64,000 nucleotides of DNA from Candidatus Woesearchaeota archaeon (lineage in GTDB: Archaea; Nanobdellota; Nanobdellia; Pacearchaeales; GW2011-AR1): contig CAYXLD010000001.1 in the NCBI GenBank assembly GCA_964465795.1, positions 5,127 to 69,126 on the forward strand, in the 5' to 3' direction. Both the position numbers and the translations under genes were made by a program. This document shows, one piece after another, positions 11,756 through 64,000 of the stretch; the first letter of the stretch is position 1, and each line of letters opens with the position of its first letter. A model generated the notes under the pieces. The model saw only the letters and a program-made list of their open reading frames with translations, had not been told where the DNA came from and did no database searches.

Positions 11756-11850
11756 ATATTAATATTCACCACTAATCAATCAATTTTTAAAAATAAATCA
11801 TTTCATTCTATTAAACAAAAACATTTAAAGTCTTAATTCCAAGTCACAAT

Positions 11851-14659: not shown

Positions 14660-14912
14660 ACAATGATGATTGCATGCATTTCCCGCAGTTTAATGTTTAA
14701 TTGGAACCCATTCTCTCCCTTCTTTAAAATCATATTTATCTTTAACAGCCAAAACCAAACTAGGCAATTTTTCTTTTGGAAGATAAAAATATTGATTTTC
14801 TTCGAAGTCTTTCATGAAATAACAAATTATCTTTATATTAAAAATATTTGTATAAATTATCATATAAATCGTTCTCCAACATCTTTTTAAACTTCTCTCA
14901 TCTAAAAATTCA

Positions 14913-15323: not shown

Positions 15324-15368
15324 AAAGTTGGTTGTTGAACTCATCAAAAACCGCAGGAGATTTTAATA

Positions 15369-15665: not shown

Positions 15666-15870
15666 GATAATTTTTTATATCAGCCCGCTTTAATAGAAGT
15701 ATAGTAGAAATCGATAAGATATTATAGAACAAAGAAAAAGTCCTTTGGCAAGGAAAACCAAAAACAAATCCAGGCTATAACAGCGATTACAATCCCTATT
15801 AATAAACCTCCTCTTCTATCTAGATAAAACAAAACCAAACTTTAAAAAACATCGATTTTCTAGATATTAT

Positions 15871-16356
15871 ATGCAAACAATAATTTTTGATAAAACATCA
15901 GAAGTTAGAAAGAATAAAGCCCTCTTAGAAGAAAAGCTTAATATAAATATGAAAATCATTAGGAGAAAAGTAATCTTTGAAGGGCCTTCATTAGAAGAAT
16001 ATGAAGCTTCACTAGTTTTGGATGCGATAAATATCGGATTTTCAGCAAAAAAGGCACTCTCTTTGAAAGAAGAATCAAAAATATTCAGAGTCCTAAATAT
16101 AAAAAATATAACAAGGAAAAAAAATCTAGAGGAGGTAAGAGCGCGCGTTATTGGATCAAAAGGAAAAACAAAAAGAACACTTGAAAATATTTCTAATTGT
16201 GAAATAGTCATTAAAGGGAATGAAATGGGCATAATCGGAGAGGCAGAATCAATAGAAAACACAATTACAGGAATATCTAATCTAATCCGCGGCACAAAAG
16301 AAGCAAATACGTACCGCTATTTGGAAAAGATTAATAGAAAAAGAAAGTTGAAATAA
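15871..16356 (+). CDS. KH-domain RNA-binding protein (Pno1/Dim2-like)
   Basis: Two KH-like segments with G-x-x-G loops (VIGSKGKTKRTLE... and IIGEAESIENTITGI). Confidence 0.65.
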   Translation: MQTIIFDKTSEVRKNKALLEEKLNINMKIIRRKVIFEGPSLEEYEASLVLDAINIGFSAKKALSLKEESKIFRVLNIKNITRKKNLEEVRARVIGSKGKTKRTLENISNCEIVIKGNEMGIIGEAESIENTITGISNLIRGTKEANTYRYLEKINRKRKLK

Positions 16357-16411: not shown

Positions 16412-16506
16412 GACCTCGTAGCTCAGCTGGTAGAGCACATGGCTGTTAAAATAAATTAAAAATTACAGCAACCATGGGGTCGGAGGTTCGAGTCCTCCCG
16501 AGGTCG
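16412..16506 (+). tRNA. tRNA-Asn (anticodon GTT) with a ~22-nt intron at the canonical 37/38 position
   Basis: Acceptor GACCTCG/CGAGGTC plus discriminator G. D-arm GCTC-AGCTGGTA-GAGC. Anticodon stem CATGG/CCATG with loop CTGTTAA, where GTT is at 16445-16447. Intron ~16449-16470. T-arm GGAGG-TTCGAGT-CCTCC. CCA is not encoded. Confidence 0.7.
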
Positions 16507-32340: not shown

Positions 32341-33795
32341 TTACTTTACTGCTCTATTAAGAATCTCCATGGCTTTCCTCTTATCAATCTTATTCCCAAA
32401 TTTTCCTATAACAAGCCCCATATAAGCATTCGCCTTTAATCCTGGTTTTTCTTTAACAATCTTAAGAACCTCTTCTTCCAATTCATCATCCTCTAATTTT
32501 TCAATCTTCAAAGCATCCTCAATCTTCTTGCCTTCAACAACATTCCATAAAATTCCCTTAACGTCTCCTTCACTTATCTTTCCATCTCTCACATTCTCCA
32601 AAACGCGCTCTAAAACTCTCTCGTTCAAAATTTCCTTAATATCAAAAAAACTCTTTCCTTTTCTAGAAGCAAACTCCTGTCTCCATAAAACAGCCATTTT
32701 AGCAACTAAATTAGAGTTTTTATTAAAAACATTCAGCAAAACTTCAAATTCCTCTAAGTTCTCCCCACTATCCAAAACTAAATTAATCATCTCTTCGCTT
32801 AACCCTTTTTTTCTTAATTCATCTCTAATCTCTTGCCTTAATTTTGGCAATTCTTTCTTAAGTCTATTAATTCTCTCTCTGCCTATCTTCAGCAAGATTA
32901 AATCAGTCTCGGGATACATTCTCGCTCCTCCAGGCAATGGCCTCAAAAATTCAGTCGTGGCATCTTCTTTTGCATTTCTAACTTCTCCGTCTCTCTTTTT
33001 TTTCTTCAGATTGTCTAATTGTCTGCCTATCTCTAATTCAACAGTCTTAACCATAATTCTCGGATCTTGAAACCCTTTTATTTCAACCCTATCATGCCCT
33101 TTAATAGAAATATTTAAATCCTGTCTAATAGTTCCTATCCCTCTTTTAACTTTACAAGCTCTCAATATCTCGCCTAGTTTCAAAGCGCACTCTTTAATTT
33201 GTTCAGCTGTCTTCAAATCCGCTTTTGTTGAAATCTCAACTAAAGGTATGCCTAATCTATCTAATCTAAAAACAACTTCCTTCCCTTTTTTATCGCTCAT
33301 CAATCTAGCAGCATCCTCCTCCAAAGCAACTGTTGCTATTCTAACTTTCCCAAAACTTAGCTCTAGACAACCATCATGGGCAATCAAAACAGTTCTCTGA
33401 AAACCGCTCGTGTTACTCCCATCAACAACTGTCTTTCTCATTATCTGCATAATTGGATAAATCTCGCAATTCAAAAGCAAGGCAATTTTCAAAACCTCAT
33501 CCAAAGCACTATCATCTAAGTCATGTGGCGGCTCCTCATCTAATTCAAGCAAGCAAGTTGTATCATTATACCCCTGATAAACAAATTCCTTTTTTAATGA
33601 GGCTTCATATTCCACAGCAACATCAACTTCTCCAGTCTCACCGGCAATAGCATGCAATTTTCTTCTTACAACAAAATCAGGATCTTCGCTCCTTAAAAAA
33701 GCAGGGCATCTGCAGAATAATTTTCCGCCAGTATCTAACTGCTGATGAATTTCTAGACCAGCCTTAACCCCTAACTTTTCATAATCAACTATCAT
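32341..33795 (-). CDS. gatE: Glutamyl-tRNA(Gln) amidotransferase subunit E (GatE, short form)
   Basis: N-terminus MIVDYEKLGVKAGLEIHQQLDTGGKLFCRC matches GatE; C-terminal GatB/YqeY-like helical domain. GatD is encoded nearby. 484 aa is short for GatE, so the GatB/GatE assignment is tentative. Confidence 0.55.
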   Translation of the reverse strand: MIVDYEKLGVKAGLEIHQQLDTGGKLFCRCPAFLRSEDPDFVVRRKLHAIAGETGEVDVAVEYEASLKKEFVYQGYNDTTCLLELDEEPPHDLDDSALDEVLKIALLLNCEIYPIMQIMRKTVVDGSNTSGFQRTVLIAHDGCLELSFGKVRIATVALEEDAARLMSDKKGKEVVFRLDRLGIPLVEISTKADLKTAEQIKECALKLGEILRACKVKRGIGTIRQDLNISIKGHDRVEIKGFQDPRIMVKTVELEIGRQLDNLKKKKRDGEVRNAKEDATTEFLRPLPGGARMYPETDLILLKIGRERINRLKKELPKLRQEIRDELRKKGLSEEMINLVLDSGENLEEFEVLLNVFNKNSNLVAKMAVLWRQEFASRKGKSFFDIKEILNERVLERVLENVRDGKISEGDVKGILWNVVEGKKIEDALKIEKLEDDELEEEVLKIVKEKPGLKANAYMGLVIGKFGNKIDKRKAMEILNRAVK

Positions 33796-46814: not shown

Positions 46815-48913
46815 CTAATTTAAGCAAGAAAGTTCGTCTTCTGTAGAGTCAGCGCCTTCTTCAGGGTAAGGTACAGGAGGAGAATTTCCCCCTTTGAAAA
46901 GATGATTGAGTAAATAAACAGAGTCAGTTAAACTAACGCCTCCTGAATCATCAACATCTGCCGCGTCTAAACACATTGGCTCTTCTCCACCTTGGAATAG
47001 ATAGCTCAATATTCCAACGGCATCAGATATATCAATTTTATTATCTCTATTTAAATCTCCTCTAATAAATTTCTTAATTTCAGTACAAACATCAGTTTCA
47101 ATATAAATTTCTCCATAAACCTGTTCATCAGGATAATTAATAAAGGCGGTTTTCTGGTCAGAATCAATGGAGTCTATTGTAACAATAGTGCCATATATAT
47201 CTGCCTCTTTTGTCTTTGTACTTTCACTAGCCAGTGCAATAGCGCCCCATTCTTTATCATTACTCCAAGTTCTAATAACTTCATTAATTCCTATTCCATC
47301 ATCTCCAGAATTTCCAGGCTCTAAAGTAACAATCAGGCCGTTAAGTATATCTTTATTATCTTTTTCTTCAAAAATTACTAATGAAGGATAGATAATCTCT
47401 GCTGTATTTTTAGAATTAGTCAAATAAACCTCTATTTTATCTTTGGTGCCGCTGCCTTTTATCTTATAATTAAATTCTGCAATTTTAACAGAAACAAAAC
47501 TATTTTTATCAAGAATATTTATTTTATTAGATACCACGCCACTAATAACATCCCATGAACCTCTGCCATTGTCTTTAAATGTAATAAAGGTATAGCCATC
47601 TCCATCAGGAAATCTAAGATCAGCCAATTTATTTCCGCCGCCATTCCAATTATTAAGATCAATAATCATTGGTTTATACAATGCAACTTGAGCCCCTTTG
47701 TTGCTTTTTATAGTAGGATATATTATAGCGCTTCCTAACCCTATGCTATCAGGATAATTTATTCTAATACTATTGCCATCATCAGATGAAATGCCCTCAT
47801 AACTTACTATATAGTCTTTTCCACCAACGCTGACAGTGCTCAATCCTTCAGCAGTAATTCTTGCATCAATAGTATCTCCTGAGAAAACATTTATAAATTC
47901 TATATTATCATTTGCAGTGCCCATTTGATTCGTTATTGCAGAAACTTTCAAAAGTCTGCCATTATCATCATTACCTATAATAACTAATTCATTTCTCAAA
48001 ATCTTTTCATTTTCAAAAACATGAATTTTTTTTCCATCCAGAGTTTCTAAATCAATAGCATTTCCAGGTTTAACCATAGCTCACTGGAACGCTTTTTCAT
48101 ATCCTTCGTAATCTTTCATTCTTAAAATCATTAGGCTATCTCCATTATTTCTAATAACAAAATCTTCTCTTAAAGAAGTATCATCTTCACCTATGTTTAA
48201 TCTTTTAAAATCAATTCGGAAAGTGCCGAATACAGGATCAATAAAAACATTCCTTGCCGGCGGGAATGTTAAAGTAAGAGCATCTTCATCCGAATCAGGC
48301 GCAATTATACTAAGTACTATTTTTGTGGTTGCAATCGGACCTCCTTCGATCATCACAGATGTACCCTCAATAAATCCTTCATCGATACCTTTCAAAACTC
48401 CTCCGCCATTATTATAAAAAAATAGAGGGATATTATCTTCACCAAGTAAAACAATTCTTTCATTATTAGTTAATGGTGAAATGCTGAATTTTTTTCCAAA
48501 TATTTTGATATCCTTTCCTGTAGATTTTGTAAAGTCAACAGCCCTGCTAAAGGTAATAGAAACCTTATAAAAGTAGTTATTTTCTACAGTGCTCAATCTC
48601 AATCCAAAACTAGGGCCATCAGAACTTGTAGGTTGTTTAGCAAAAATAATTTTAGGATAAGAACCAATTTCTATACCTTGAACATATTCTGCTGCAACAT
48701 TCCCAAAAAAACTGCCTTTTTTTAAAAGAGCAGGCAATTCATTACTATTAATGATGGATTTGACGCTATTCAACGGTTCATTTAAATAAATTTTATTGGC
48801 TGCGGCAAATAAAGGCGTTACCTCTCCAGTACATACGGCCTGTGCAAAAACTCCACTAATAAAAAATATTCCTATTAATCCAGAGAAAAAATAATATAAG
48901 CCCTCTTTTCATA
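46815..48913 (-). pseudogene. Dockerin-domain secreted protein. The body is the two track ORFs 48081..48773 and 46815..48077, separated by an in-frame TGA at 48081-48083. The N-terminal signal peptide lies in other frames.
   Basis: C-terminal tandem dockerin repeats DLNRDNKIDISDAVGILSYL and DVDDSGGVSLTDSVYLLNHL. The ATG at 48913 gives MKRGL..., then a signal-peptide-like ...LIGIFFISGVFAQ in a second frame, then the main frame. Frame switches coincide with an A6 run (48887-48892) and a CCC run (48839-48841). Confidence 0.5.
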
Positions 48914-48956: not shown

Positions 48957-49950
48957 ATACAGTAAACTTATAGTCAATTATGCTTAGCTACATAAGCTAT
49001 AAGTTCTAGTAGTTTATTCCTTCCAAGATCAAGTTTTATCTCCGCCATTTCTGCTGGTGTTTTATCTTTCAATTCTTGATGTGGATTTACAAAATTGTTC
49101 ATGATTCTTTGCAAATTCATAAATGATTTTGCATATTCAAAACTCTTGAATTCTCCTCTCCTTGCATTCATTCTGTCTTTCAATTTTCCATTATATCTTT
49201 CAATTGGATTGTTATTATGTTTCAATCCATATTTTTTACATGCAATTGGAACACCAAATTATAGTTTAGCAACTCTGTAAAAAAGATTATTAAATGCATT
49301 TCTGTAATTTTCAAAACCATCTGAAACAAAAATTATTCTTTTATCTATTTTCATAAATTTCTTTATGTAATATCTTGCAAGCATTTGATTATAGCAAGTT
49401 TCTTTTATCTGGGAAAGAAACTTAATGCAGTTTTCTTCATCTATTTTATCGACGAATAAATGAGCAGTTACAAACTTTGTTTTGCTGTCAATACAATTTA
49501 GGTCAAAACAATCTTCTCCATCAACCTTGACATATTTTTCATCGTAATGCTGTCTTCCTTTTAGTTTTGGCTCTAGTAGATTTATCTGATTTTAAAAAAA
49601 AGGAATATTTTTTTATCCATCGACTAATTGTTCTTTTAGTCACTTTTATTCCATCATGCTGCCACAAATGGTCTTTCACATCAAACAAGGACAACCCTTC
49701 GTTGTGCAAGGATATTGCACGTGCAATATCCTTTTTATTATATCTCATTTTTTTGAATCCATCTTCTTCCACAAACCATGTTCCACAATCATTGCATAAA
49801 TATTTTTGCTTATCTCCAGTTTTGTTCTTTCTAAAACCCTCTTTCATCACGTTTTTGTTTTTACACTTAGAACATCTCAATTCCATGATACTCCTCCCAA
49901 AAAAGGAGGTTTATCAACTATATAAGCCTGACGATAAGTATACTATATCC
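48957..49950 (-). mobile_element. IS6-family insertion sequence (~994 bp) with imperfect 22-bp terminal inverted repeats, an 8-bp target-site duplication TAATTTTA, and a decayed transposase
   Basis: IR at 48957-48978 (gatacagtaaacttatagtcaa) matches the reverse complement of 49928-49949 (gatatagtatacttatcgtcag) at 18/22 positions. Direct repeats taatttta lie at 48949-48956 and 49951-49958. The transposase shows the N-terminal Zn-ribbon/HTH ORF (49539..49886), the DDE region HYDEKYVKVDGEDCFDLNCIDSKTKF in a +1 frame, and the C-terminal NNPIERYNGKLKDR ORF (48974..49225). Confidence 0.7.
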
Positions 49951-49955
49951 TAATT

Positions 49956-52304
49956 TTAATAAATCACACCGCCATAATCATCTTCATAAGGCAACTCAAT
50001 CTTCCCTAGTTCTCGCAAATCATCCAAATAATTAGCCTTAATTTTCGCCATCGATAGAGTATATAAAATATCACCAATGTATAAACTTCTCTGAACTTGA
50101 TTCTTATAGTCATAATAAGGATTATGATTTATTCCCCCTGGTAATGAATCAATCATCTCATTACTCCAAATATTTTCATAATTTTCATGATAAGATTTCG
50201 TGGCTGTTTCAGGGGCGTACAATTCTGTATTATTGCTCTCCCATTTATCCTCCCAAATCTTAGTCCATGTCTCTCCACTATATCCCGCTCTCTTTGCCCC
50301 TATCAGCTCTTCAGAAGCAGGTCCATACTTTTTTATATCATCAAAATGAGTTATCTGTCCTTTAACTTTAATATAATCTTCTTTTATATCGAAAACATAT
50401 GCTCCCTGCCAGACAGTTTCTCCATAAGCCAATTCAGGTCTCTCATGGTTTTGGGAATTTATTTTAGCCAAAGAAATAGGCAATACAAGCAAATTCCTTT
50501 TTTTATCAAATAAAAATGCTTTATGGTCATATAATGCATTACTATCTGTTCCTCTGTCTCCAATAATGATCTTGGCGCTTTCCTTAGGATTTGCCACATC
50601 CCTAACATCAAATATAGCAATCTTCAGCCCTTGATTAATAACAAAATCTCTGGTAGAATCAGAAACCTCTAAAGTATCTTTTCCTATCCCTATAATATGA
50701 TTCTCGTCATAAGCGTGCAAGTAATCAGAATACCCTGGAATCTTCAAATATCCTAAAACTTTAGGTTCTTGAACATCAGACAAATCAATCACATAAAAAG
50801 GATCAATATTCTTAAAAGTCACTAAATAAGCTCTGTCTCCAATAAATCTTGCAGAATAAATTCTCTCTCCAGGAGCCAAATCTTCAACTTTGCCAATAAC
50901 TTCCAAATTATCATTTAATATATAAACATTATTTTTGCTATTTTCGCTCCAAAATTCCCCAGAAGTCGTGGCTATTCTAAAATATCTATTATTCTCATCC
51001 ATAAAAAATTGATTTAGAACAGTTCCTTTAACTTCTCCTTCGGTCAAGTATTCAATTTCCTCTTCATCAACTCTAATCTTATGAATAACAGTCTTCTCTC
51101 TTTGTTCCCTCAATTCTCTTATAAAATAATTCATGCCTTCATATAATCTCTCATCAAAATTAGATTTAGCCTCCCCACCCAAAGAGCCGGAATAATCAAG
51201 AATAACTTTATTTATTTTGCTGTTCTTTTCATGAAAAGAATCTTTGGAATTTAATACATTTTCTATCTTTATTTTTTCATCAGCTGGAACAATAGGCAAA
51301 ACAACCTGCTCAATCATATCTTCAAAATAATCTCTTTCATTCAAAAATTTAGTGTAAGTCAGATAAATATTTTCACTAGATACATATAAGTTATTGCTCG
51401 CTCCAGTCAAATAAACTTTGCTATTGACCTTTCCATTTTTTATATTTATCGAATTTATAGTATTAAATGTATATCCATAATCCCAATAATCAAAATAATA
51501 AAGATCGTTTATAGCCAATCTTTCTTCAGCACCATTTATTTTTAGCATAGGCATTATAGGATTATCATTATTAACATATTTAGAGCCAATAATATAAACA
51601 TAATCTCCAATCATCCTGGAGTTTATATATTGGCCTTCGATGCTAATTTCTTTATCTAATTTAGGCTTAGTTCTATCACTTATATCATAAATATAAGCAT
51701 AAATGATAGATTCTCCGCCATAATAAGGAGGGAATATTGCTATATCAACAGCAGCTTCTTGTAATTTTGTTTCCTGATCTGAATTTATTGTTTCATATCC
51801 TTGGGCAAAAACAATAAGTCTATCTTCATTAACAAATATTCCCAATAAACTTTTATCCACAAATTCAACTTTACTAATAATTCTCATATCAGAAGCAGGG
51901 AGAGCATTAACAATAACAATCTTATTACCTGCAATATCATAAATGTAATTTCCGTCATTTTTAACTAAATCTGCTTCATCAACTCCTTCCACTTGAACAT
52001 TAGTTTGAGAATAGTCGCTTGCTTTTGCTCCAGACCCTGATTCAGCAGTAATACTTGCCCCATCTCTTTGAAGAAAACTTCTATCTATTGAAGGCAGTGC
52101 TCTTTGTGCAATCTCAAAATTCCCTAAATCCTGGCTCTCTTTCAAAAATTCCTTCAATTCAAAATAAGAATTAAAACTCCTAATTTTATTATTATAAACA
52201 ATTTCATCGCTAGTTTTTGAGTCAAAAACCGATATTGCTATCATAACTAAAACAAAAATTAATAAAACTGCAACAATGCCTATGTTCTTTGTTTCATCTT
52301 TCAT
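49956..52304 (-). CDS. Secreted/anchored beta-propeller-domain protein
   Basis: N-terminal TM or signal segment, then repeated beta-strand-rich motifs (QVEGVDEADLVKNDGNYIY, YVYIIGS, GDRAYLVTF...). Resembles the 'beta propeller domain' secreted-protein family. Its stop codon lies inside the IS target-site duplication. Confidence 0.45.
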   Translation of the reverse strand: MKDETKNIGIVAVLLIFVLVMIAISVFDSKTSDEIVYNNKIRSFNSYFELKEFLKESQDLGNFEIAQRALPSIDRSFLQRDGASITAESGSGAKASDYSQTNVQVEGVDEADLVKNDGNYIYDIAGNKIVIVNALPASDMRIISKVEFVDKSLLGIFVNEDRLIVFAQGYETINSDQETKLQEAAVDIAIFPPYYGGESIIYAYIYDISDRTKPKLDKEISIEGQYINSRMIGDYVYIIGSKYVNNDNPIMPMLKINGAEERLAINDLYYFDYWDYGYTFNTINSINIKNGKVNSKVYLTGASNNLYVSSENIYLTYTKFLNERDYFEDMIEQVVLPIVPADEKIKIENVLNSKDSFHEKNSKINKVILDYSGSLGGEAKSNFDERLYEGMNYFIRELREQREKTVIHKIRVDEEEIEYLTEGEVKGTVLNQFFMDENNRYFRIATTSGEFWSENSKNNVYILNDNLEVIGKVEDLAPGERIYSARFIGDRAYLVTFKNIDPFYVIDLSDVQEPKVLGYLKIPGYSDYLHAYDENHIIGIGKDTLEVSDSTRDFVINQGLKIAIFDVRDVANPKESAKIIIGDRGTDSNALYDHKAFLFDKKRNLLVLPISLAKINSQNHERPELAYGETVWQGAYVFDIKEDYIKVKGQITHFDDIKKYGPASEELIGAKRAGYSGETWTKIWEDKWESNNTELYAPETATKSYHENYENIWSNEMIDSLPGGINHNPYYDYKNQVQRSLYIGDILYTLSMAKIKANYLDDLRELGKIELPYEDDYGGVIY

Positions 52305-53090: not shown

Positions 53091-53930
53091 ATGAAAAAGC
53101 GAGTGATATTAATGGCAGGTTTTACTTTTCTTGCCTGCTTATTAACGCAGGTATCCGCATTAAATGCTGATTTTGCAATATACACTGGTTCAGGCACTTG
53201 GGAGCATAGTGTATCCGCATTTGAAAATTTTTTGGAGTGGAAAAATTTAACTTATGAGGAAATAAATTCATGGAATTTAAATCACAATTCTCTCATTGGA
53301 AATTACAAAGCAATTTTCTTTCCTGGAGGTTGGGCATATAATTATAAAAAGTCTATACATTCTTCAGGCAATCAAAACATTAGAGACTTTATTTCATCAG
53401 GAGGAGCATATATAGGAATGAGTGCAGGCGCTTATTTCGCTTGTGATAATGTTCGCTGGGAAAATCAAGACTACCCTTATTATTTAAACCTGTTTCATGG
53501 AGATTGTATAGGCCCTATTGAAGAGATCGCTCCTTGGCCAAATTATGTGATGACAACAATGTCAATAAACAAAAATCATGAAGCAAATATTTATGAGCCC
53601 ATGGCTGAAGATTTTCTATATTATGGAGAGCCGTATTTCATCCCCTATCAAAATCAGGAAATGCAGATACTGGCATCTTGGAATGTAATATCAAATCCAG
53701 CAGCAGATAAAGCTCCTGGAATCATAGGTTTTAACTATGGGCAGGGAAGAGTCCTGCTAATTGGTCCTCATCCTGAAATCGAAGAAGATTCTGATAGAGA
53801 TGGAAATAATTTTGGCGAAGAATTAAATGATAATGGTTCAGACTGGCCATTTCTTTGGACAGCAGTTGATTGGCTATTAAAAAAATCTATCTCGCGGCCG
53901 CCTGAATTTCCACAGGGACAGCCCCCATAA
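53091..53930 (+). CDS. Secreted protein with a class-I glutamine-amidotransferase-like/BPL_N-like fold (hypothetical)
   Basis: Signal peptide MKKRVILMAGFTFLACLLTQVSALNA. GGWAYN...GGAYIGMSAGAYFACD is reminiscent of GATase1-like hydrolases. Confidence 0.35.
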   Translation: MKKRVILMAGFTFLACLLTQVSALNADFAIYTGSGTWEHSVSAFENFLEWKNLTYEEINSWNLNHNSLIGNYKAIFFPGGWAYNYKKSIHSSGNQNIRDFISSGGAYIGMSAGAYFACDNVRWENQDYPYYLNLFHGDCIGPIEEIAPWPNYVMTTMSINKNHEANIYEPMAEDFLYYGEPYFIPYQNQEMQILASWNVISNPAADKAPGIIGFNYGQGRVLLIGPHPEIEEDSDRDGNNFGEELNDNGSDWPFLWTAVDWLLKKSISRPPEFPQGQPP

Positions 53931-54700
53931 TAAACGATACTATTGCACCAATAATTCATTCTTTTTCAGACTCCCCTGATCCTCTAACAGCAGGAGCAAT
54001 CCTAACAATAAAAGCCAATATTACAGACAATATTGCAATCAACACAGTAAAAGTTAATATCTTAGATATCTTCTACCAAATGTCATTAGAACGGGACCAA
54101 TCTGCAACAATCTTATTCGATAATTTCGAATCAGGTTCTCTATCTGGCTGGACAACTTCAGCAGTATCAGGCGGACAAAAATGGACTGCATCTACAACTA
54201 ATCCTTTCCAAGGTTCATGGCATGCCCAGTCTCAACCTCGCTCAACTTCTGAACCAGCATCAACCTTAGAAAAAACAATCCCAACAACAAACTATCAAGG
54301 CATATCAATAAAATACACCAGAAAACTAATTGGCCTAGACGCAGCAGATGAATTCAAAGCAAAATGGTTTGATGGAATAAAATGGAATATTCTAGAACAA
54401 ACAGGGTCAAATTCAGCTAATGACGCCCCATACATACAAAAGTCATTCTCTCTGCCCCAAACAGCAAACAATAATCCAAATTTCAAAATAAAATTTGAAT
54501 GCACAGCAGGAGCAGTATCAGAATATTGCAGAATAGATAATGTAAATATTTCTGCCTCAAGTTCCCCAACAGGACTCTACATATACAAATTTAACACATC
54601 CAATTTAATAAATGACACTTATGCCTACACAATCTACGCCGAAGATACATCAAGTAACCAGCCAGCCCCGCAAGGTGGAGATTTTACGATAATTCTATAG
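53906..54700 (+). pseudogene. Start-less, rearranged fragment of a giant-surface-protein paralog: an Ig-like repeat fragment, then a copy of the conserved N-terminal domain, then another repeat fragment
   Basis: The frame is open from 53906 (after a TGA) with no Met until 54080. Reads ...DTIAPIIHSFSDSPDPLTAGAILTIKANITDNIAINTVKVNI..., then FDNFESGSLSGWTTSAVSGGQKWTASTTNPFQGSWHAQSQP...FECTAGAVSEYCRIDNV (same domain as aa 25-175 of the 1892-aa protein), then ...YIYKFNTSNLINDTYAYTIYAEDTSSN. Confidence 0.45.
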
Positions 54701-54994: not shown

Positions 54995-55144
54995 ATTTTA
55001 CAAAATATAAAGGACTATATAAATTTTTATGTAATAAGTTCTCATAAATAGCAACCTATATAAATCCAAATTCTTTAAAATACTTATTAAGCATTGATGT
55101 ATATCATTAACGCTAAGCATTAATGCACAAAATAAAAGAGGAAA

Positions 55145-55357
55145 ATGAAAAAAACTAAAAAAGAGCTAGTCACTAATCTGTTAAAAAAAGACAATCAAGG
55201 GTTAACAATAATAGAAATCTCAAAAATATTAAAAATCTCTAGAAACACAGTTGCGGTTGCACTAGCCGAATTAAAAGGTGCTAATCTAATAAGAATAAGG
55301 CCAATTGGGAAAGCAAAATTACATTACTGGCTCAAAGAGAAGGAGATTAAAAAATGA
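55145..55357 (+). CDS. Small winged-helix transcriptional regulator (ArsR/MarR-like), overlapping the start of the giant surface-protein gene by 4 nt
   Basis: LTIIEISKILKISRNTVAVALAELKGANLIRIRPIGKAKLHYWL is an HTH plus wing. Its stop overlaps the downstream ATG (ATGA). Confidence 0.55.
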   Translation: MKKTKKELVTNLLKKDNQGLTIIEISKILKISRNTVAVALAELKGANLIRIRPIGKAKLHYWLKEKEIKK

Positions 55358-58300
55358 AAAAACAAATTACAATTGTTCTTCTTTTCCTATTTTTAATAAA
55401 TTTAGCTTCTGCAATAACAATATTCTCAGATGATTTTGAATCAGGAAATTTAAACGCATGGAATAAAACAAATGTAGCTGGAGCAAGAAATTGGACAGCC
55501 AATCAAACAAACCCCTTTCAAGGCTCATGGCATGCGCAATCCCAGCCAGAAAGCACAACAGAACCAGCAAGCGTTCTATCAATAAATATAAGCACATCGA
55601 ATTACCAAGATATAAGCATATTTTATTATCGTAGGCTTGTAGGCATTGATGCAGGGGATGAATTTCAGATGGAATGGTTTAATGGTACAACATGGGAAAT
55701 CTTAGAATCAACAGGAAGCTCATCAGCAAACAATGCAGTATATTTAGCAAGAAACTTTAATCTCTCATCTGTTGCAAACAATAATCAATATTTTCAAATA
55801 AAATTTGAATGTACAGCAGGAGCAACTTCAGAATACTGCAGAGTTGATAATGTAATAATAACAGGCAGCTCAATCCAAGATACTACTCTTCCAACAGTAA
55901 ACATAATTGCTCCAAGAAATAATACCATAACAACCTCAGCAATAAATAGCTTCAATGCTACATTTTCAGATAATATAGCCTTAATCAATACAACATACTA
56001 TTTATGGAATTCTACAAATTCTCTAATAAATATCACTGCTATAACGCTATCTGGCTTAGATGGAAGCATAAATTTAACAATAACATTCCCTTACGAGGAT
56101 AAGTTCACATGGAATTATTTAGCGGCAGATACTTCAAATAATTTCGCATATAATTTAACAAACTTCACAATTCTTTACGATGCAACACTGCCCTCAATAA
56201 ACTACACCATCCCAACTCAACAGTCAGGCACTATAAAAAATTCCAACTTCATAGAAATAAATATCACTGCGTCAGATTTATACTTGCAAGCACTAACAAT
56301 TCGTCTATTCAACTCAACAAAAGATCAAGTAAGAACAAACACCTCTACTAATTCCCCTTTCTATATAAACTATCTAAATCTTCAAGACGGGCTATATTTC
56401 TACAATTCATCAGCAAATGATACTGCAGGAAATACAAAAAATTTAGGAACAAGAAATATAACTATAGATACAACCCCTCCTTCAATAACAATATTAACAG
56501 AATCGCCACTAGATCCAACAACCTACTTTCAAAATAATATATATCAATTCAACGCAACAATAACAGACTTAACTCAAATACAATCAGTGAAATTAGAATT
56601 CAATGGAACAAATTACACGGCAGCAAATCCAGCAGGGAATACATATAACGTCTCTATTTCTAATCTCCCAGCTGGAGTTTTCAACTATAGATGGTTCGCA
56701 AACGATTCAGCAGGCAACACAAACAATTCAGAAACAGGCCCATATACGATAAACAAAGCTCAATCCCAGCTCAATCTTACATTAAACAATACTGAAGGAA
56801 ATATTACAATAATAGCCAGCACATCAATCATTCTAAACGGAACTCTAATCAGAGGTGACTCTCCAACTATTCTAAAATTATATAAAAACAGCACTCTAAT
56901 AAATGAAGGTCTTTCTCCGCTATATAATTTAACAAACTTCACAATTCAAGGATTATATAATATAACTATAATTTATACATCTAGCCAAAACTACACGGAG
57001 AATTCAAAAACCTATTATGTAAATGTAACATCTCAGCCAGATATAACTTCTCCTTACTTTACAGCAACTCCGGCTAATACAACAATAAATTACACTCAGG
57101 GCTTCCAAGTCAATTTTGAAGCATCAGATAATATAGCCATAGACAGTTTCTCAATCAATTGGACAACTAATTTCGAAATAAATAAAACAGGTTCTTTAAA
57201 AAACACAACAAAACTCTCTGCAGGAGCATATCTGATAAATGTATCTATCAATGATACCTCGGATAATAAAAATTCAACAATATATCAGGTTATTGTAAAT
57301 AAAATACCAAGCCAGGTAAATACCTTCCTAAACCATTCAAGATTAAATATAACAATACTGCAAAACACGGCAATATATCTAAACAGTACTCTTATTACTG
57401 GAGAAGGAATAATAAAATTATATAAGAATAACTCTTTAATAAATCAAGGGCAATCTCAGTTATCAAACCTAACCAATTTCACAACAATAGGCACATTTAA
57501 TATAACAACTATCTATGAAGAAACACAAAATTATTCATCAAATTTTGAGGCTTTTTACATTAAAGTTACGCAAACTCTAGATAACATCTCTCCATATTTC
57601 ACAGCAATTCCAGCAGACACAACAACAAGCTATCCTAACAATTTCGGAGTGGATTTTGATGCATCAGACAATAATGCAGTAGACAATTTCAGAATAAACT
57701 GGACAGATACATTCCAGATAAATCAATCTGGCTTTTTAAATAATACAAAGAATCTTGGAACAGGTTTCTATTTAATAAATATAACTATAAATGACACATC
57801 AAACAATTTAAACTCGACAATCTACTCTGTTAATATAACTCAAAATAATACATATGTTATATCAATATCTCTCTCGCCAGCATCATCAGTAATATATCCA
57901 ACGCAAACAACAACTGCAGGGAATAGCTGTCCTCAAGAACTATCATGTACTCTTTTCAGAAACAACATCTCAATAACAAATCCAGAAATAAAAACTCTGG
58001 GAGCAGAAACATACCATTACTTATACAACACAACAGGAAATACTAATTACTCCTCCAAAACAATAAGCTCATTGCTAATAATAAATCAAAACACAAGCTC
58101 CAACATTTCTTTATTTCTAAATAATACCCAAAACAATATAACAATAATAAATGGAACAAGTATCGATATTAACACTTCTTTGATTATAGGAACGGGTCAG
58201 ATAGAACTATATAAAAACAATACTCTGATTAATATAGGAAATTCATCCTTGCATAACTTAACATTGTTCAACACAATAAACTCATTCAATATAACTGCAA

Positions 58301-61032
58301 TTTATAGAGGGAATGAAAACCACACTTCTGCAACAAAAACATTCTACGTAAATGTAATCCAAATTCCAGACACAACTTTCCCTCTAGTTTCAATCATTCA
58401 ACCACAAAACATTTCTTATAACACTCTTCCCCTGCAATTAAACTACTCTGTCTCAGATAATAATCTCCAATCGTGCTGGTATTCAATAAACAATGGAATA
58501 ACAAATACCTCAATTACATGTGGAAGTAACATATCTTCTCTCTCAAGCAATCAGAACTCAAACATATGGACAATCTATGCAAATGACAGTGCAGGAAATA
58601 TAAATTCTTCATCAGTTACATTCTTCGTAGACTCAATAATCCCCCTAATCTCATTCACAAATCCAACAAAACAAAACAACAGTATTTTATCTCAAAGCTC
58701 AATATTCATAAACACCTCAATAAATGAAACAAATTTCGCAAACATCACATTCTCTCTGTATAATATAACTTCATTAGTAAATATGACAATATTTGCTTCC
58801 CAGATTCTATCAATAAATTTTACGTCCTTGCAAGATGGAGTATATTTCTACAACGTAACAATCAAAGACACATTAAATAATCAAAATACAACAGAAACAA
58901 GAACAATAACTTTAGATAAAACAGCTCCTTCTATATTTATAATAAGTCCGCAAAATATAACATATTTTAACACAACGATTTTAATTAATATATCAAGCAA
59001 TGGAAATATAGTCTGGTTTTTCAACACAACAGCTAATGAAACTTACATCTCGCCAGTCTATAGAACATTAGACGGTTCAAACACTATTATAGCTTACACA
59101 AATGATTCTCTGGGAAATATTAATTCAACATCAATAACCTTCTATGCAACTGAAATAAATTTAAACTGTGAAATAGGCGGCCCGTATCAGCAAGGAGCAT
59201 TAGTCCTAGTACAAGGCAATTTATCAAATAAAACAACTCCTCTAACTAATCAGGAAATAAATCTAACGATATACAAAAATAATCTTGCAAACACTTCAAA
59301 AATATTATCAACCTCAAACGATGGCAGTTTTGAAACATCCATAACAAATTTATCAATCGGGAATTATATACTAAATGCTACAACTTCATACCTGCAATCT
59401 AACAAATCGTGTATTGATAACTTTCAAATAGGCTCGCAGGCATCATTAATAATCTATAAAATAGCCTCTGTTCACAACACGACTAATGACACAATTTATT
59501 ATAATATAACATTAAAAATAATAAATAGCGGCGGTGCTGATGCAACAAACACAAACATTACTGACTCTGATTCAGAATCTTCCCCATATGTAATTGGAAC
59601 GCTATCTCCATCTTCAAGCTATCAAATCAGCTATCTAAAAAACTTTTCAAGGCAATCTTCAACATTTTATTATCTAACTTCAGCAGCAGCGCTAAGTATA
59701 GATTCATACTCAAACTCTTTAATAACAGCAAATTCTACACAAATAAACCTAACGGTCCCAGCAACACAAATCGGGAAGCAAATAATAATAACAAAAAATA
59801 TTTTATACATTACAGAAACATCCCTGAATGTCACGTACAATGTGTCTTCAACTCTTTATAATTCAGGGGATGAAGACTTATCAAGTATAAATTATATAGA
59901 TACTGACATTTCAAGTGTAGCCAGTCAGTTAAATCTTACAAAAGCTAATTCAAAACAATTCGAAAATACACTACTAATTTCAAAGGCAGCATCAAATATA
60001 AACCATGAATTTGCTTTAGGTACAGCAACAATAGACTCTTTAAACTTTTATTCGAACCGCCCGAAGATTAACATTCCTGGCTATGGCGGTCCAGCAGATA
60101 TTATAGTTTATGCTCCTTCATCGATTCAAGCATCAGCATCATTTGACGCGGCAATAGAAATAAAAAATGTAAATCCAGATATTGGGCAGGACTTCCCGAT
60201 AAATTATTGGATAACTAATAATGATGAAACGCAAAATTTTTCATCAGGCCAAAAAACAATTTATGTTGGGGCCAATAGCTTAGTTAATACAACAATAATG
60301 CAAACCTCTCCATCGGCAATTGGCATATATAAACTAAAAGCACTTGCAATATGGGCGGGAGGTTCAGCATCTGCTTTTGAAAGCTTTGATGTAGTTTCTA
60401 AAATAATAATAGAAGAACCTCAAGAGTCCTCATCTCAATCAAGAAGCAGTTCAACAACAGACTCTTCAGTAAAAATTCCTTCAGAAAAAAATGAAAGCAA
60501 ACCTTCTGAAAAACAGGAAGCAGAAGCTGAAATAAAAGAAATAATCTGCAATCCCCCATATATAAGGCATGGTTCAGAATGTTGCCTAGATCAAAACAAC
60601 AATGGCATTTGCGACGAAGATGAAAAGAAAGACTTCAAAGAAGCTCCAAAATCCGATATATTGGCCTCCATTACAGGATTTATAGTCAATAATATTACAA
60701 ATATCGAAATAGTAAACAAGATAATAATACCAATTATATTAATAATTATTATAATTCTAATAACATTATACATAATAAAAAGAATAAAGAAAAAACCAAA
60801 AGACAAAAAGAGGCTAAAAACACTAATAAACCTAAAGGTTTATACATCAGACGGAATAGAGATTGGCAAAGTAGAAGAAATATTCATAAAAGACCATAAA
60901 ATACACAGCATAAAGATAAAACTCCATAAGAAAAAGAAATTTAAAGCCAAAGGAATTATAATATCCTATAAAGCTGTTGAAGCAGTTAAAGATATAATAA
61001 TTATAAAAAGCAATATAATAGAAAGAATTTAA
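55354..61032 (+). CDS. Giant (1892-aa) cell-surface protein: signal peptide, conserved ~150-aa N-terminal domain, more than a dozen Ig-like repeats rich in N-glycosylation sequons, Cys-containing stalk, single TM anchor (~60715-60777), cytoplasmic PRC-barrel-like tail (~60796-61029)
   Basis: MKKQITIVLLFLFLINLASA signal. N-domain FSDDFESGNLNAW...WHAQSQP...FECTAGATSEYCRVDNV. Repeats begin with D-x-T-x-P-S/L-I (DTTLPTVNI, DATLPSINY, DTTPPSITI, DKTAPSIFI, DSIIPLISF). Very many N-x-S/T sequons. TM IIIPIILIIIIILITLYII, then KRIKKK. Tail LKVYTSDGIEIGKVEEIFIKD...GIIISYKAVEAVKDIIII is PRC-barrel-like. Confidence 0.8.
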   Translation: MKKQITIVLLFLFLINLASAITIFSDDFESGNLNAWNKTNVAGARNWTANQTNPFQGSWHAQSQPESTTEPASVLSINISTSNYQDISIFYYRRLVGIDAGDEFQMEWFNGTTWEILESTGSSSANNAVYLARNFNLSSVANNNQYFQIKFECTAGATSEYCRVDNVIITGSSIQDTTLPTVNIIAPRNNTITTSAINSFNATFSDNIALINTTYYLWNSTNSLINITAITLSGLDGSINLTITFPYEDKFTWNYLAADTSNNFAYNLTNFTILYDATLPSINYTIPTQQSGTIKNSNFIEINITASDLYLQALTIRLFNSTKDQVRTNTSTNSPFYINYLNLQDGLYFYNSSANDTAGNTKNLGTRNITIDTTPPSITILTESPLDPTTYFQNNIYQFNATITDLTQIQSVKLEFNGTNYTAANPAGNTYNVSISNLPAGVFNYRWFANDSAGNTNNSETGPYTINKAQSQLNLTLNNTEGNITIIASTSIILNGTLIRGDSPTILKLYKNSTLINEGLSPLYNLTNFTIQGLYNITIIYTSSQNYTENSKTYYVNVTSQPDITSPYFTATPANTTINYTQGFQVNFEASDNIAIDSFSINWTTNFEINKTGSLKNTTKLSAGAYLINVSINDTSDNKNSTIYQVIVNKIPSQVNTFLNHSRLNITILQNTAIYLNSTLITGEGIIKLYKNNSLINQGQSQLSNLTNFTTIGTFNITTIYEETQNYSSNFEAFYIKVTQTLDNISPYFTAIPADTTTSYPNNFGVDFDASDNNAVDNFRINWTDTFQINQSGFLNNTKNLGTGFYLINITINDTSNNLNSTIYSVNITQNNTYVISISLSPASSVIYPTQTTTAGNSCPQELSCTLFRNNISITNPEIKTLGAETYHYLYNTTGNTNYSSKTISSLLIINQNTSSNISLFLNNTQNNITIINGTSIDINTSLIIGTGQIELYKNNTLINIGNSSLHNLTLFNTINSFNITAIYRGNENHTSATKTFYVNVIQIPDTTFPLVSIIQPQNISYNTLPLQLNYSVSDNNLQSCWYSINNGITNTSITCGSNISSLSSNQNSNIWTIYANDSAGNINSSSVTFFVDSIIPLISFTNPTKQNNSILSQSSIFINTSINETNFANITFSLYNITSLVNMTIFASQILSINFTSLQDGVYFYNVTIKDTLNNQNTTETRTITLDKTAPSIFIISPQNITYFNTTILINISSNGNIVWFFNTTANETYISPVYRTLDGSNTIIAYTNDSLGNINSTSITFYATEINLNCEIGGPYQQGALVLVQGNLSNKTTPLTNQEINLTIYKNNLANTSKILSTSNDGSFETSITNLSIGNYILNATTSYLQSNKSCIDNFQIGSQASLIIYKIASVHNTTNDTIYYNITLKIINSGGADATNTNITDSDSESSPYVIGTLSPSSSYQISYLKNFSRQSSTFYYLTSAAALSIDSYSNSLITANSTQINLTVPATQIGKQIIITKNILYITETSLNVTYNVSSTLYNSGDEDLSSINYIDTDISSVASQLNLTKANSKQFENTLLISKAASNINHEFALGTATIDSLNFYSNRPKINIPGYGGPADIIVYAPSSIQASASFDAAIEIKNVNPDIGQDFPINYWITNNDETQNFSSGQKTIYVGANSLVNTTIMQTSPSAIGIYKLKALAIWAGGSASAFESFDVVSKIIIEEPQESSSQSRSSSTTDSSVKIPSEKNESKPSEKQEAEAEIKEIICNPPYIRHGSECCLDQNNNGICDEDEKKDFKEAPKSDILASITGFIVNNITNIEIVNKIIIPIILIIIIILITLYIIKRIKKKPKDKKRLKTLINLKVYTSDGIEIGKVEEIFIKDHKIHSIKIKLHKKKKFKAKGIIISYKAVEAVKDIIIIKSNIIERI
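58590..58918 (+). repeat. 329-bp block, identical as far as I can read, to 62078-62406 in the downstream paralog
   Basis: tgcaggaaatataaattcttcatcagttacattcttcgtagactcaataatccccctaatctc...caataactttagata is present in both genes in the same codon phase. Flanking sequence is clearly diverged. Confidence 0.75.
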
Positions 61033-61034
61033 AA

Positions 61035-64000
61035 ATGGTAAAAAAAGAGGTAAATTTGTTGATTCTCTCAACTATAATTGTAATTATCTTTATTGTCTCA
61101 GTAAATGCTGCGACAATCTTTACAGATGGCTTTGAATCAGGTAGTTTATCAGGTTGGACATTAACCACAGGTACTAATATGAACAATTGGACAGCGTCTA
61201 CAGTAAACCCAAATAGCGGAAGCTGGCATGCTCAATCACAACCACAAGGATTAAACTTGCCACCAAGCACGATGAATCGCACGATAAGCACTGCAGGATA
61301 TCAAAATATTAATTTCAGTTACTATCATCAATTAGTAGGAATTGATCCTGGAGATGAATTCACAGTTGCCTGGTTTGATGGCATAGGATGGATTACTGTT
61401 GAAACAACTGGCTCCAATGCTTCAGATGAATCTTCTTATTCTTTAAAAAGTTTTCTTCTACCAAGTTCTGCTGACAATAATCTAAATTTTAAAATAAAAT
61501 TTGAATGTACAGCAGGAGCAGTTAGTGAATTCTGCAGAGTTGACGAAATTTCGATTACAGGAGATGTTATAGACACTACTCCCCCAATCGTAACCATTAA
61601 TTTCCCAGCAAACAACGCATTCTACAAGTCAACACTAAATTTCAACGTTTCTTTAAATGAAAATGGCTCTACAATCTACTCTTTAAATGGCGGAATAAGC
61701 AATAAAACGATGCTATATACCACTGACAATCTAAGCCCCTTTGGAACATTATTTAATCATACTAATAATTCAATTGCAGATGGCACTTACACTTTTCAAG
61801 TTTATGCAAACGACACAAATGGAAATAAAAACTATACAACGACAACACAATTTACATACGATACAATTAATCCATTGCTAAAGATAATTCAACCTCAAAA
61901 TACTACTTACAATACAGATTCCTTACAAATAAATTTCACAGTTTCAGACGTTAATCTAAATTCATGCTGGTACACTAATAACAATGGGCAGACAAACACA
62001 ACCTTATCAAACTGTCAAAACGCCTCTTATTCAGCACAGCAAGGCTCAACAACTCTTCTTTTATACGCTAATGATTCTGCAGGAAATATAAATTCTTCAT
62101 CAGTTACATTCTTCGTAGACTCAATAATCCCCCTAATCTCATTCACAAATCCAACAAAACAAAACAACAGTATTTTATCTCAAAGCTCAATATTCATAAA
62201 CACCTCAATAAATGAAACAAATTTCGCAAACATCACATTCTCTCTGTATAATATAACTTCATTAGTAAATATGACAATATTTGCTTCCCAGATTCTATCA
62301 ATAAATTTTACGTCCTTGCAAGATGGAGTATATTTCTACAACGTAACAATCAAAGACACATTAAATAATCAAAATACAACAGAAACAAGAACAATAACTT
62401 TAGATACAACAGCCCCATCCTTAAACCTAACAATACCAAAAAACATCTCTTACAATAGTATTCAAACAGAATTAAATTATACAATATCAGATACTAATCT
62501 CCAATCATGCTGGTATACAACAAATGGTGGAACAACTAATACTTCAATAATATGCGGAAATAACATATCTTCTCTCTCAAGCAGTCAAGGCTCAAATACA
62601 TGGATAATTTATGCAAATGACAGTGCAGGTAATGCTAATTCCCCTTCTGTAACATTTTTCGTGGATTCTATCATTCCATCTTTATCTATCATAACACCGA
62701 CAGAAGGCTCAACATTTGGAACAAACACAAGTCTAGCACTAAACTTCACAGTTTCAGATACTAATCTCCAGTCTTGCTGGTATAACATAGATAATTCAAA
62801 CAACATAACTATCCAAAATTGTTTGAACACAACATTCAATACATCTGCTAGCGAGCATACTCTATTCTTATATGCAAATGACAGCTTAAACAATGAAAGA
62901 AAAGCAAATGTAAGTTTCACTGTATCAATCGGAGCACCTACTATAACGCAATCTTCTCCTATAAACATATATCTAAATTCTTCTCAAACAACATTTTATT
63001 ACACTGCAACAGATGTGGATCTTAATGCATGTGAAATTTGGGGAAATTTCACAGGCCAATATTTATTAAATCAAACAAATTCCACATTAATTTCAGGCCA
63101 GCAAAGTCAATTTAACATAAGCCTTTCAGATAACGGTTATATATGGGCAATAAAATGCAACGATACTTTAGGAAATTCAGCCATAACAGGCAATAAAACC
63201 TTCTCGATAGATACAATATATCCAAAAATAACCTTATCGGAGCCTTCAGGCACAAAAACTTCTAGAAACAATATACCAATTACATTTACAACTTCAGACA
63301 ATAACATACAATCTTGTTGGTATAACTTATATAGGGGGCTAAACTTAGAGATAGCTAATACAACTATAAGCTGTTCACAATCATCATTTTTTAATACAAC
63401 TGTTGATGCCTCTTTCACATTGAATTTTTATGTAAATGATTCTGCTAATAATATAAACACATCATTAATATCATTTAATGTCGATACATCATCCCCTTCA
63501 AACGGGGGCGGTTCAGGAGGGGGAGGATCATCAGGGGGAGGCGGAATATCTGCAAAAGGAAAAAATGAAACTTTTTCTTTAGAGATAAAATTGCTAGAAA
63601 CTATTGCAATAAAAAGAGGGACTAATATATCGCTGAATTTAGAAGTAACAAACAAAGATAAAAAATTCGCTAATAATTGTAGAATAATCCTAAATAGTCC
63701 TCTAAAAAATTATGCCATAAATTCAGAAATTAAAGGATTAAGCCCTGGGGAAAAATTCATCTTTAATATTTTTATCAATATTCCGCTTAACTCTGAAATA
63801 GGCAAATTTAATTCAGAAATATCAGTAAAATGTGAAGAAGGATCAAAATCAATAAATCATGATATTTTTGTTTATAGAAATAGCTTCGAAGCAAGACTAT
63901 TAAATTATGAAAGAGAAACCGATAGGTTAAAAATTACATATGTGCTTGAGGAATTCTCACAAAAAGATCATGATATTCAGCTCAATTATAAGCTTACTGA
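61035..64000 (+). CDS. Second giant surface protein (tandem paralog), 5' part only; runs off the window
   Basis: MVKKEVNLLILSTIIVIIFIVSVNAATIFTDGFESGSLSGWTLTTG...WHAQSQP...FECTAGAVSEFCRVDEI, then DTTPPIVTINFP... repeats, and a Gly-rich linker (SSPSNGGGSGGGGSSGGGGIS at ~63480-63545). No stop seen before 64000. Confidence 0.7.
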   Translation, partial: MVKKEVNLLILSTIIVIIFIVSVNAATIFTDGFESGSLSGWTLTTGTNMNNWTASTVNPNSGSWHAQSQPQGLNLPPSTMNRTISTAGYQNINFSYYHQLVGIDPGDEFTVAWFDGIGWITVETTGSNASDESSYSLKSFLLPSSADNNLNFKIKFECTAGAVSEFCRVDEISITGDVIDTTPPIVTINFPANNAFYKSTLNFNVSLNENGSTIYSLNGGISNKTMLYTTDNLSPFGTLFNHTNNSIADGTYTFQVYANDTNGNKNYTTTTQFTYDTINPLLKIIQPQNTTYNTDSLQINFTVSDVNLNSCWYTNNNGQTNTTLSNCQNASYSAQQGSTTLLLYANDSAGNINSSSVTFFVDSIIPLISFTNPTKQNNSILSQSSIFINTSINETNFANITFSLYNITSLVNMTIFASQILSINFTSLQDGVYFYNVTIKDTLNNQNTTETRTITLDTTAPSLNLTIPKNISYNSIQTELNYTISDTNLQSCWYTTNGGTTNTSIICGNNISSLSSSQGSNTWIIYANDSAGNANSPSVTFFVDSIIPSLSIITPTEGSTFGTNTSLALNFTVSDTNLQSCWYNIDNSNNITIQNCLNTTFNTSASEHTLFLYANDSLNNERKANVSFTVSIGAPTITQSSPINIYLNSSQTTFYYTATDVDLNACEIWGNFTGQYLLNQTNSTLISGQQSQFNISLSDNGYIWAIKCNDTLGNSAITGNKTFSIDTIYPKITLSEPSGTKTSRNNIPITFTTSDNNIQSCWYNLYRGLNLEIANTTISCSQSSFFNTTVDASFTLNFYVNDSANNINTSLISFNVDTSSPSNGGGSGGGGSSGGGGISAKGKNETFSLEIKLLETIAIKRGTNISLNLEVTNKDKKFANNCRIILNSPLKNYAINSEIKGLSPGEKFIFNIFINIPLNSEIGKFNSEISVKCEEGSKSINHDIFVYRNSFEARLLNYERETDRLKITYVLEEFSQKDHDIQLNYKLT
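62078..62406 (+). repeat. Second copy of the 329-bp block shared between the tandem surface-protein paralogs
   Basis: See 58590-58918. Confidence 0.75.

Follow-up and report, generated by a model that had tools for sequence, protein, structure and literature searches.

In a 64,000-nt stretch of DNA from a Candidatus Woesearchaeota archaeon (contig CAYXLD010000001.1, forward-strand positions 5,127 to 69,126; this whole stretch is referred to below as the window), two neighbouring giant genes, g1 and g2, share an internal tract of 329 bp that is identical base for base. This identity is very probably the result of a very recent ectopic gene conversion between the adjacent paralogs, and it fits a recurring pattern in which shared modules evolve in concert and stalk modules are reshuffled. 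The initial annotation had proposed a recent conversion between these tandem genes, and the proposal is borne out by sharp tract endpoints with synonymous divergence immediately outside them, by shared modules that group by genome while the protein N-termini group by gene, and by independent tracts in other genomes. The two genes, separated by only 2 nt between the g1 stop and the g2 ATG, and the two copies of the tract are as follows.

55354-61032, plus strand: g1, an open reading frame (ORF) of 1892 amino acids (aa), exactly equal to database protein P0001.
61035-64000, plus strand: g2, which leaves the window; the full protein, P0036, has 1123 aa and ends about 406 nt past the window.
58590-58918, plus strand: g1 copy of the identical tract, g1 codons 1079-1189, covering the last beta-strand of an A-type immunoglobulin (Ig)-like module and a whole B-type module.
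62078-62406, plus strand: g2 copy of the identical tract, g2 codons 348-458, with the same structural span as in g1.

Direct comparison of the two copies gives 329 matches in 329 positions, with an exact run that ends abruptly on both sides. The offset between the copies is 3488, which is not a multiple of 3, and both open at codon position 3 of their own ORF (counted from 55354 in g1 and from 61035 in g2), so that they lie in the same phase, as had been reported initially, and encode the same 109 residues (AGNINSSS...TRTITLD). The tract is the longest exact repeat of the window, exceeding the runner-up (29 bp) more than 10-fold. In the same register, the 60-nt windows flanking it match at only 12-27 of 60 positions. 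Even at 77%, the highest local identity between g1 and g2 elsewhere, the chance of a run of 329 matches would be 0.77^329, or about 1e-38.

The edges of the tract are informative at the level of codons. On the left, the residues YANDS are encoded by TATGCAAATGACAGT in g1 and by TACGCTAATGATTCT in g2, and on the right the motif D-x-T-A-P-S is written GAT AAA ACA GCT CCT TCT in g1 and GAT ACA ACA GCC CCA TCC in g2; the flanking differences include AGT versus TCT for serine. Across the approximately 109 codons of the tract there are no differences at synonymous sites, whereas the adjoining YANDS and D-x-TAPS use different codons. As the flanks retain the same residues in different codons, the tract edges behave like recombination endpoints, and the nucleotide identity between them cannot be explained by constraint at the protein level. 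Both endpoints fall on repeat families D3 and D6. These correspond to the two short motifs that are best conserved among the modules: the ...AATGAYWSTGCAGGAAAT... stretch, translated as NDSAGN, and the linker between domains, translated as D-T-x-P-S. On an AlphaFold2 (AF2) model of g1 residues 1007-1267 (predicted local distance difference test score, pLDDT, 86.8), which comprises three beta-sandwiches of roughly 7 strands, the tract covers the last strand of one Ig-like module and the complete next module, designated B.

Comparison with related genomes shows that each gene otherwise continues with its own orthologous sequence. The g1-g2 pair was found in the window's genome (W) and in L001, L002, L023, L024, L025 and L026, and g2 without g1 on contigs L009, L010 and L011. 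W g2 and L001 g2 are collinear for 998 aa (66% identity), and B stands where it is expected; the g2 copy of the tract likewise lines up with B in orthologous g2 genes, the aa identity being 76-82%. W g1 shows the same kind of collinearity with its L002 ortholog and, on the downstream side of the tract, with the g1 genes of L001, L023 and L024 too. Because both genes carry B at the expected site and continue with their own orthologous sequence, a chimeric join is ruled out and replacement is favoured over insertion.

The B modules group differently from the N-terminal domain. In a nucleotide neighbour-joining (NJ) tree, each of the four genomes with a B module in both genes has its g1 copy as the nearest neighbour of its g2 copy, as listed here.

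W: g1/g2 B-module nucleotide identity 100%, bootstrap 100.
L024: g1/g2 B-module nucleotide identity 84%, bootstrap 100.
L023: g1/g2 B-module nucleotide identity 86%, bootstrap 94.
L002: g1/g2 B-module nucleotide identity 66%, bootstrap 92.

As a control, a tree of the N-terminal domain groups the sequences by gene, with a g1 clade at 70% bootstrap in which W g1 and L024 g1 pair at 100%.

Further tracts of exchange occur in the related genomes. In L024, a g1/g2 mosaic of about 700-760 bp (6110-6863 versus 9636-10392) extends over an A'-B-C block at 88% identity, with exact runs of 102, 84 and 80 nt that are broken by a diverged patch where the B module begins, which suggests either conversion events that overlapped or mismatch repair that was patchy. 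L025 has its tract at the 5' end: from the ATG, g1 and g2 are about 96% identical for ~240 nt (6001-6240 versus 10642-10881), and an older tract in the same position is found in L026, where the 5' ends are about 90% identical from the ATG (6001-6210 versus 11673-11882). These 5' tracts cover the signal peptide and the start of the head domain, and the DNA upstream of them is unrelated. In a tree of the 5' region, the g1/g2 pairs of L025 and L026 each receive 100% bootstrap, while the g1 sequences of W, L001, L002 and L024 group by gene and no genome other than L025 and L026 has its g1 paired with its own g2. The 5' tract is a conversion separate from that in the window and at a different place in the genes. 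Across the genomes, the ages of the tracts range from 0 to about 35% nucleotide divergence.

The order of modules in the stalks is similarly variable. The modules of the window that bear on this comparison are the following.

58372-58632, plus strand: A''-type Ig-like module of g1, directly upstream of B, with 74-77% nucleotide identity to the A'' module of g2.
58918-59154, plus strand: C-type Ig-like module of g1, directly downstream of the tract, found in the W genome in g1 alone.
61863-62120, plus strand: A'-type Ig-like module of g2, upstream of B.
62406-62666, plus strand: A''-type Ig-like module of g2, downstream of B.
62667-62927, plus strand: A'''-type Ig-like module of g2.

The A'' module of g2 is the segment at about 62470-62700 that the initial annotation took for the second gene's own diverged version of the repeat. 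It turns out to be a different, A-type module: its resemblance is to the g1 module upstream of the tract (62435-62677 versus 58401-58643, 77% nucleotide identity), and of the tract itself this match takes in just the first ~54 nt. Among orthologs, the module orders below were recorded, and further g2 orders exist.

g1, A''-B-C: W and L002.
g1, A'-B-C: L024, P0006 and P0007.
g1, A'-B'-B-C: L023 and P0005.
g1, C only: L001.
g1, no A, B or C: L025 and P0011.
g2, A'-B-A''-A''': W and L001.
g2, A'-B-C-A''': L009, L023 and L024.
g2, A''-B-C-A''': L025, P0045 and P0087.

These differing orders support the earlier suggestion of a mosaic exchange of modules between the paralogs. Taken together with the independent tracts of other ages and positions, they show that exchange between g1 and g2 is recurrent, patchy and independent between lineages.

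The probable course of events can be outlined. The homologous Ig-like modules would let g1 DNA pair with g2 DNA, and the tract would then be copied in frame and non-reciprocally from one gene into the other, displacing the resident version. Endpoints within conserved motifs are what would be expected if both initiation and resolution depend on homology. The copying itself could proceed by heteroduplex repair or by synthesis-dependent strand annealing, carried out by the archaeal recombination machinery. The stalks would thereby become identical in places, a form of concerted evolution, and in the longer run new combinations of modules and mosaic stalks would arise. In addition, the 329-bp direct repeat, with its copies 3.5 kb apart, could mediate a deletion that produces a g1/g2 hybrid gene.

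With regard to the direction of copying, g2 is the probable donor and g1 the recipient. The identity between W g2 and L001 g2 is flat at about 72% across and around the tract, with no step, and the L001 g2 copy of B cannot have been overwritten from g1 because L001 g1 has no B module. Between W g1 and L023 g1, identity is about 80% downstream of the tract and about 72% inside it. Furthermore, in a tree of the A domains, the A'' module of W g1 falls within the clade that the g2 A'' modules of W and L001 form (82% bootstrap; 74% nucleotide identity to that of W g2), which suggests an older transfer from g2 to g1 in another register; the A'' module of g1 would then probably be a relic of that transfer. 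A comparison of the tail-of-domain sequences gave no signal on direction.

Several points weigh against the interpretation of the identical tract as a recent conversion from g2 into g1. In L023 and L024, the B modules of g1 and g2 have themselves been homogenised, which confounds the inference of direction. Scans of genome and metagenome contig collections with the B module returned no copy above 82% aa identity and no strain-level relatives, so the comparison was made among species-level relatives. The trees are NJ trees on short alignments, of about 285 nt for the B module. The perfect identity could in part be an assembler consensus of copies that differ at a few sites. Finally, the case for conversion is built from sequence.

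The initial annotation had read the mosaic exchange as a signature of antigenic or adhesin variation, and the corresponding alternative is that the two genes serve as mutual donors in a dedicated system of segmental conversion for programmed surface variation, in the manner of pilE/pilS, vlsE or tprK. Exchange that recurs at several segments and in several lineages, mosaic architectures and the adhesin-like nature of the proteins would all agree with such a system, as would the elevated densities of non-synonymous single-nucleotide polymorphisms in surface proteins of Nanoarchaeota (PMC6142677). The architecture of the locus argues otherwise, since it consists of two full-length genes only, each complete with start codon, signal peptide and anchor. 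A tblastn search of the window with the module found copies inside these two genes only, with no truncated or promoterless cassettes, and the related loci likewise contain the gene pair alone. No G-quadruplex (G4) motif was found on either strand of 55000-64000, nor any comparable cis element, and the tract endpoints lie in ordinary conserved coding motifs. A Pfam scan covered 42 window sequences, among them 40 of the 41 ORFs that reach 150 aa, and detected no reverse transcriptase, and there is no dedicated recombinase nearby; the one ORF left out of the scan (32528-33070, plus strand) lies inside a GatB_N-family gene (32341-33795, minus strand). Moreover, the observed event makes g1 and g2 more alike, and the spread of tract ages fits sporadic events on evolutionary time scales. 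Programmed variation is accordingly considered very improbable, and the designation as antigenic or adhesin variation is not upheld.

An assembly artefact was also considered, in which differing copies were flattened to one consensus or one copy was mis-threaded through the repeat. The contig is of the metagenome type, each close relative found is a metagenome-assembled genome, and the identity is seen at the level of the assembly; exact repeats longer than k are trouble spots for assemblers. In the other direction, both copies sit in frame, at module-exact positions, and on either side of each copy the gene runs on in its own orthologous sequence; orthologs of both genes in independent assemblies have the B module at the same positions. 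The g1/g2 tracts in other assemblies carry scattered mismatches (84-98% identity), which collapse cannot make. De Bruijn graph assemblers merge near-identical paths only, and flattening could thus hide a few differences at most; it would alter the estimated age of the conversion and not the conclusion that one occurred. An artefact as the whole explanation is very improbable.

Constraint, in the sense that the copies are kept identical by strong selection, acting either on the protein module or on an RNA or regulatory element within it, can be given almost no weight. It is true that the Ig-like domain B is conserved and that the genomes agree at its C-terminal end (NNQNTTETRTITLD). Nevertheless, orthologous B modules differ at 24-41% of their nucleotides, which indicates that synonymous sites are free to change, and the adjoining conserved residues differ in codon between g1 and g2. 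A structured RNA in the tract was rejected, as an Rfam scan of the whole window finds just two tRNAs and nothing inside the tract. The independent recent acquisition by both genes of a mobile 'domain cassette' or of foreign DNA has nothing direct in its favour beyond a module order that varies among orthologs, and it is negligibly probable given the 82% ceiling in the database scans, the presence of B at this place in the relatives' genes and the lack of target-site duplications; insertion of a mobile element was likewise rejected, the sole transposase-like ORF being weak, below the Pfam threshold and about 52 kb distant.

The g1 product consists of a signal peptide, a jelly-roll head (55414-55905), an Ig-like stalk, a transmembrane (TM) helix (60721-60777) and a cytoplasmic PRC-barrel (60805-61011; Pfam PRC, 37.8 bits). 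The g2 product, whose translation in the window equals the first 988 aa of P0036, has a signal peptide, a head domain of the g1 type (61110-61592), an Ig-like stalk, a C-terminal TM helix and a short basic tail. The Pfam family Big_13 (PF19077) is matched by g1 at 41.1 bits and by g2 at 55.4 bits, above the cut-off of 27. On single modules and on the head domain, Pfam gave sub-threshold matches or nothing (the B module alone scores 17.7 bits against Big_13), and AF2 structure prediction with Foldseek was used for these. The modules inside one gene are diverged from each other (30-75%).

The top Foldseek matches of the three-module model in the Protein Data Bank are an Aeromonas RTX adhesin, GhpA, SiiE and a Marinomonas ice-binding adhesin. 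The N-terminal head, of about 165 residues and conserved in g1 and g2, is predicted by AF2 as a jelly-roll (pLDDT 86; predicted template modelling score 0.82), and its nearest solved structures are CBM22, CBM4 and CBM61, the 'cleaved adhesin' domain of gingipain, MAM domains and Eph ligand-binding domains. N-x-S/T sequons number 119 in g1 and reach 6.3 per 100 aa in g1 and 4.7 in g2, compared to 0.3-0.8 in cytosolic proteins of the window. This density, 8-20 times that of the cytosolic proteins, indicates that g1 and g2 would be heavily N-glycosylated extracellular proteins. From the signal peptide, the TM anchor, the sequon density and the CBM/MAM-like head, we infer that both are exposed at the cell surface and have an adhesive role.

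The closest parallel to the g1-g2 pair is interparalog conversion, with concerted evolution, among bacterial adhesin or outer-membrane-protein genes such as babA/babB of Helicobacter pylori, in which full-length surface paralogs, two or a few in number, also swap internal segments by homologous recombination, giving rise to chimeras and to identical tracts with diverged flanks (PMC4552749, PMC4271554). In contrast to babA/babB, the genes described here are adjacent, probably co-transcribed and located in a DPANN-like archaeon, whole Ig-like stalk modules are exchanged, and no binding-switch or phase-variation phenotype has been linked to g1 and g2. The stalks also resemble those of giant Ig-repeat adhesins such as Salmonella SiiE, the Aeromonas and Marinomonas RTX adhesins, Aureispira GhpA and Acinetobacter Bap, which share the beads-on-a-string arrangement of beta-sandwiches of roughly 80-100 residues and a distal ligand-binding domain. 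In Bap, the number and order of modules are polymorphic between strains (PMC4647330). The giant bacterial adhesins are secreted by type I secretion systems, are often stabilised by Ca2+ and have near-identical tandem repeats within one gene, whereas g1 and g2 have diverged intragenic modules, a C-terminal TM anchor and dense sequons, and the identity lies between two genes.

Neisseria pilE/pilS, Borrelia vlsE and Treponema tprK each combine one expression site with an archive of silent partial cassettes, often together with dedicated cis elements. As in the window, segmental non-reciprocal conversion alters part of a surface-protein gene in these systems; unlike them, the window has neither silent cassettes nor a G4-type cis element. 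Diversity-generating retroelements (DGRs) target surface proteins in DPANN archaea, but their template and variable repeats differ at adenines and they need a nearby reverse transcriptase. A near-identical repeat pair tied to a surface-protein gene in the same kind of organism is a point of likeness, set against zero mismatches, no reverse transcriptase among the scanned ORFs of at least 150 aa in the 64 kb, and a mid-gene tract in both copies. A DGR was rejected on these grounds, as a tract with 0 mismatches in 329 bp leaves no room for A-biased differences. In Haloferax volcanii, gene conversion equalises the genome copies of polyploid cells (PMC11276520), an example of efficient conversion based on homologous recombination in archaea; there it acts on the same locus on different chromosome copies and here on diverged tandem paralogs. 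A literature search that covered part of the journals found no earlier account of conversion between surface-protein paralogs of DPANN archaea.

Most DPANN archaea are ultra-small and have not been cultivated, and a life attached to host cells is assumed for many of them, which makes their surface proteins central to their biology. In g1 and g2, a conserved pair of giant surface proteins would evolve by repeated conversion between paralogs and by module shuffling, adding to point mutation and DGRs, and the locus offers a concrete, testable case for the remodelling of DPANN surfaces. The process is textbook in bacteria and eukaryotes, so the finding extends a known phenomenon to a little-studied lineage and will appear plausible more than surprising to a specialist. 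A broader proposal, which we regard as rather unlikely, is that the locus formed by the winged helix-turn-helix (wHTH) gene described below, g1 and g2 constitutes a two-gene 'module-swap' system of DPANN archaea in which conversion is selected for fast surface remodelling. If it were true, the stalk modules, and in other lineages the 5' head region, would remodel proteins presumed to contact hosts or to be targeted by viruses. It would also represent a recombination-based counterpart to DGRs, and coexisting mosaic variants would be expected in natural populations. On the practical side, exact repeats inside giant genes are a hazard for the assembly of these proteins' genes and for ortholog-based phylogenies of the proteins.

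The pair sits in a locus that is partly conserved. Its nearest upstream neighbour is the following gene.

55145-55357, plus strand: wHTH ORF of 70 aa, whose stop overlaps the g1 start codon (ATGA).

This ORF is 82% identical to the small gene of L024, and counterparts of 67-69 aa stand upstream of g1 in L023, L025 and L026 as well. It is likely to be an operon partner or regulator of the surface-protein pair, and g1 and g2 are probably co-transcribed. The order Beta-propeller, HTH_20, BPL_N-like, wHTH, g1 and g2 recurs wholly or partly in four other contigs. In keeping with an archaeal origin, the window, with a G+C content of about 32%, contains MCM, GatD/GatE, deoxyhypusine synthase, aRF1, FtsZ and an intron-containing tRNA, and all close relatives of g1/g2 belong to metagenome-assembled DPANN genomes that carry the labels Woesearchaeota, Nanoarchaeota or Pacearchaeota.

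Other predicted surface or secreted proteins are encoded upstream, among them a protein with dockerin-like repeats (46815-48077, minus strand) and a 782-aa Beta_propel (PF09826) protein (49956-52304, minus strand) that is syntenic in L025 too. Their positions suggest that they may form, together with g1 and g2, a conserved surface-protein island. A 26-nt perfect inverted repeat at 49708-49758 (with arms that start at 49708 and end at 49733 in the reverse complement) lies roughly 200 nt beyond the stop codon of the Beta_propel gene, the minus-strand ORF that begins at 49956 in forward coordinates, and may form a hairpin resembling a terminator. Upstream of the locus, the BPL_N-like gene (53091-54700) is split by a frameshift near 53906-53930. 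Of the intact L024 ortholog (534 aa), residues 1-277 align to 53091-53927 in one frame and residues 271-534 to 53906-54697 in another. The split gene could be a pseudogene or reflect a sequencing or assembly error. Its C-terminal half has the 'FESG' jelly-roll domain also seen in the g1 and g2 heads.

In two of the related loci, additional genes accompany the pair. L023 has a toxin-antitoxin type pair of a nucleotidyltransferase (Polbeta/DUF6932) and a HEPN protein between g1 and g2 (14874-15960), and L026 has a gene for an IS1595-family DDE transposase directly downstream of g2 (15524-16285).

Elsewhere in the window, the intron-containing tRNA at 16412-16506 scores 60.5 bits with Rfam over 95 nt and was missed by ARAGORN in its default mode. 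With introns allowed, ARAGORN reports Ala(AGC) with a 22-nt intron, whereas by eye the anticodon loop could read GTT (Asn), leaving the identity of this tRNA uncertain. Near the start of the window, a restriction-modification pair at 488-2205 comprises an MvaI/BcnI-like endonuclease (488-961, plus strand) and an N4/N6 DNA methylase (958-2205, minus strand), and is followed by the weak, sub-threshold DDE-transposase-like ORF (2496-3074).

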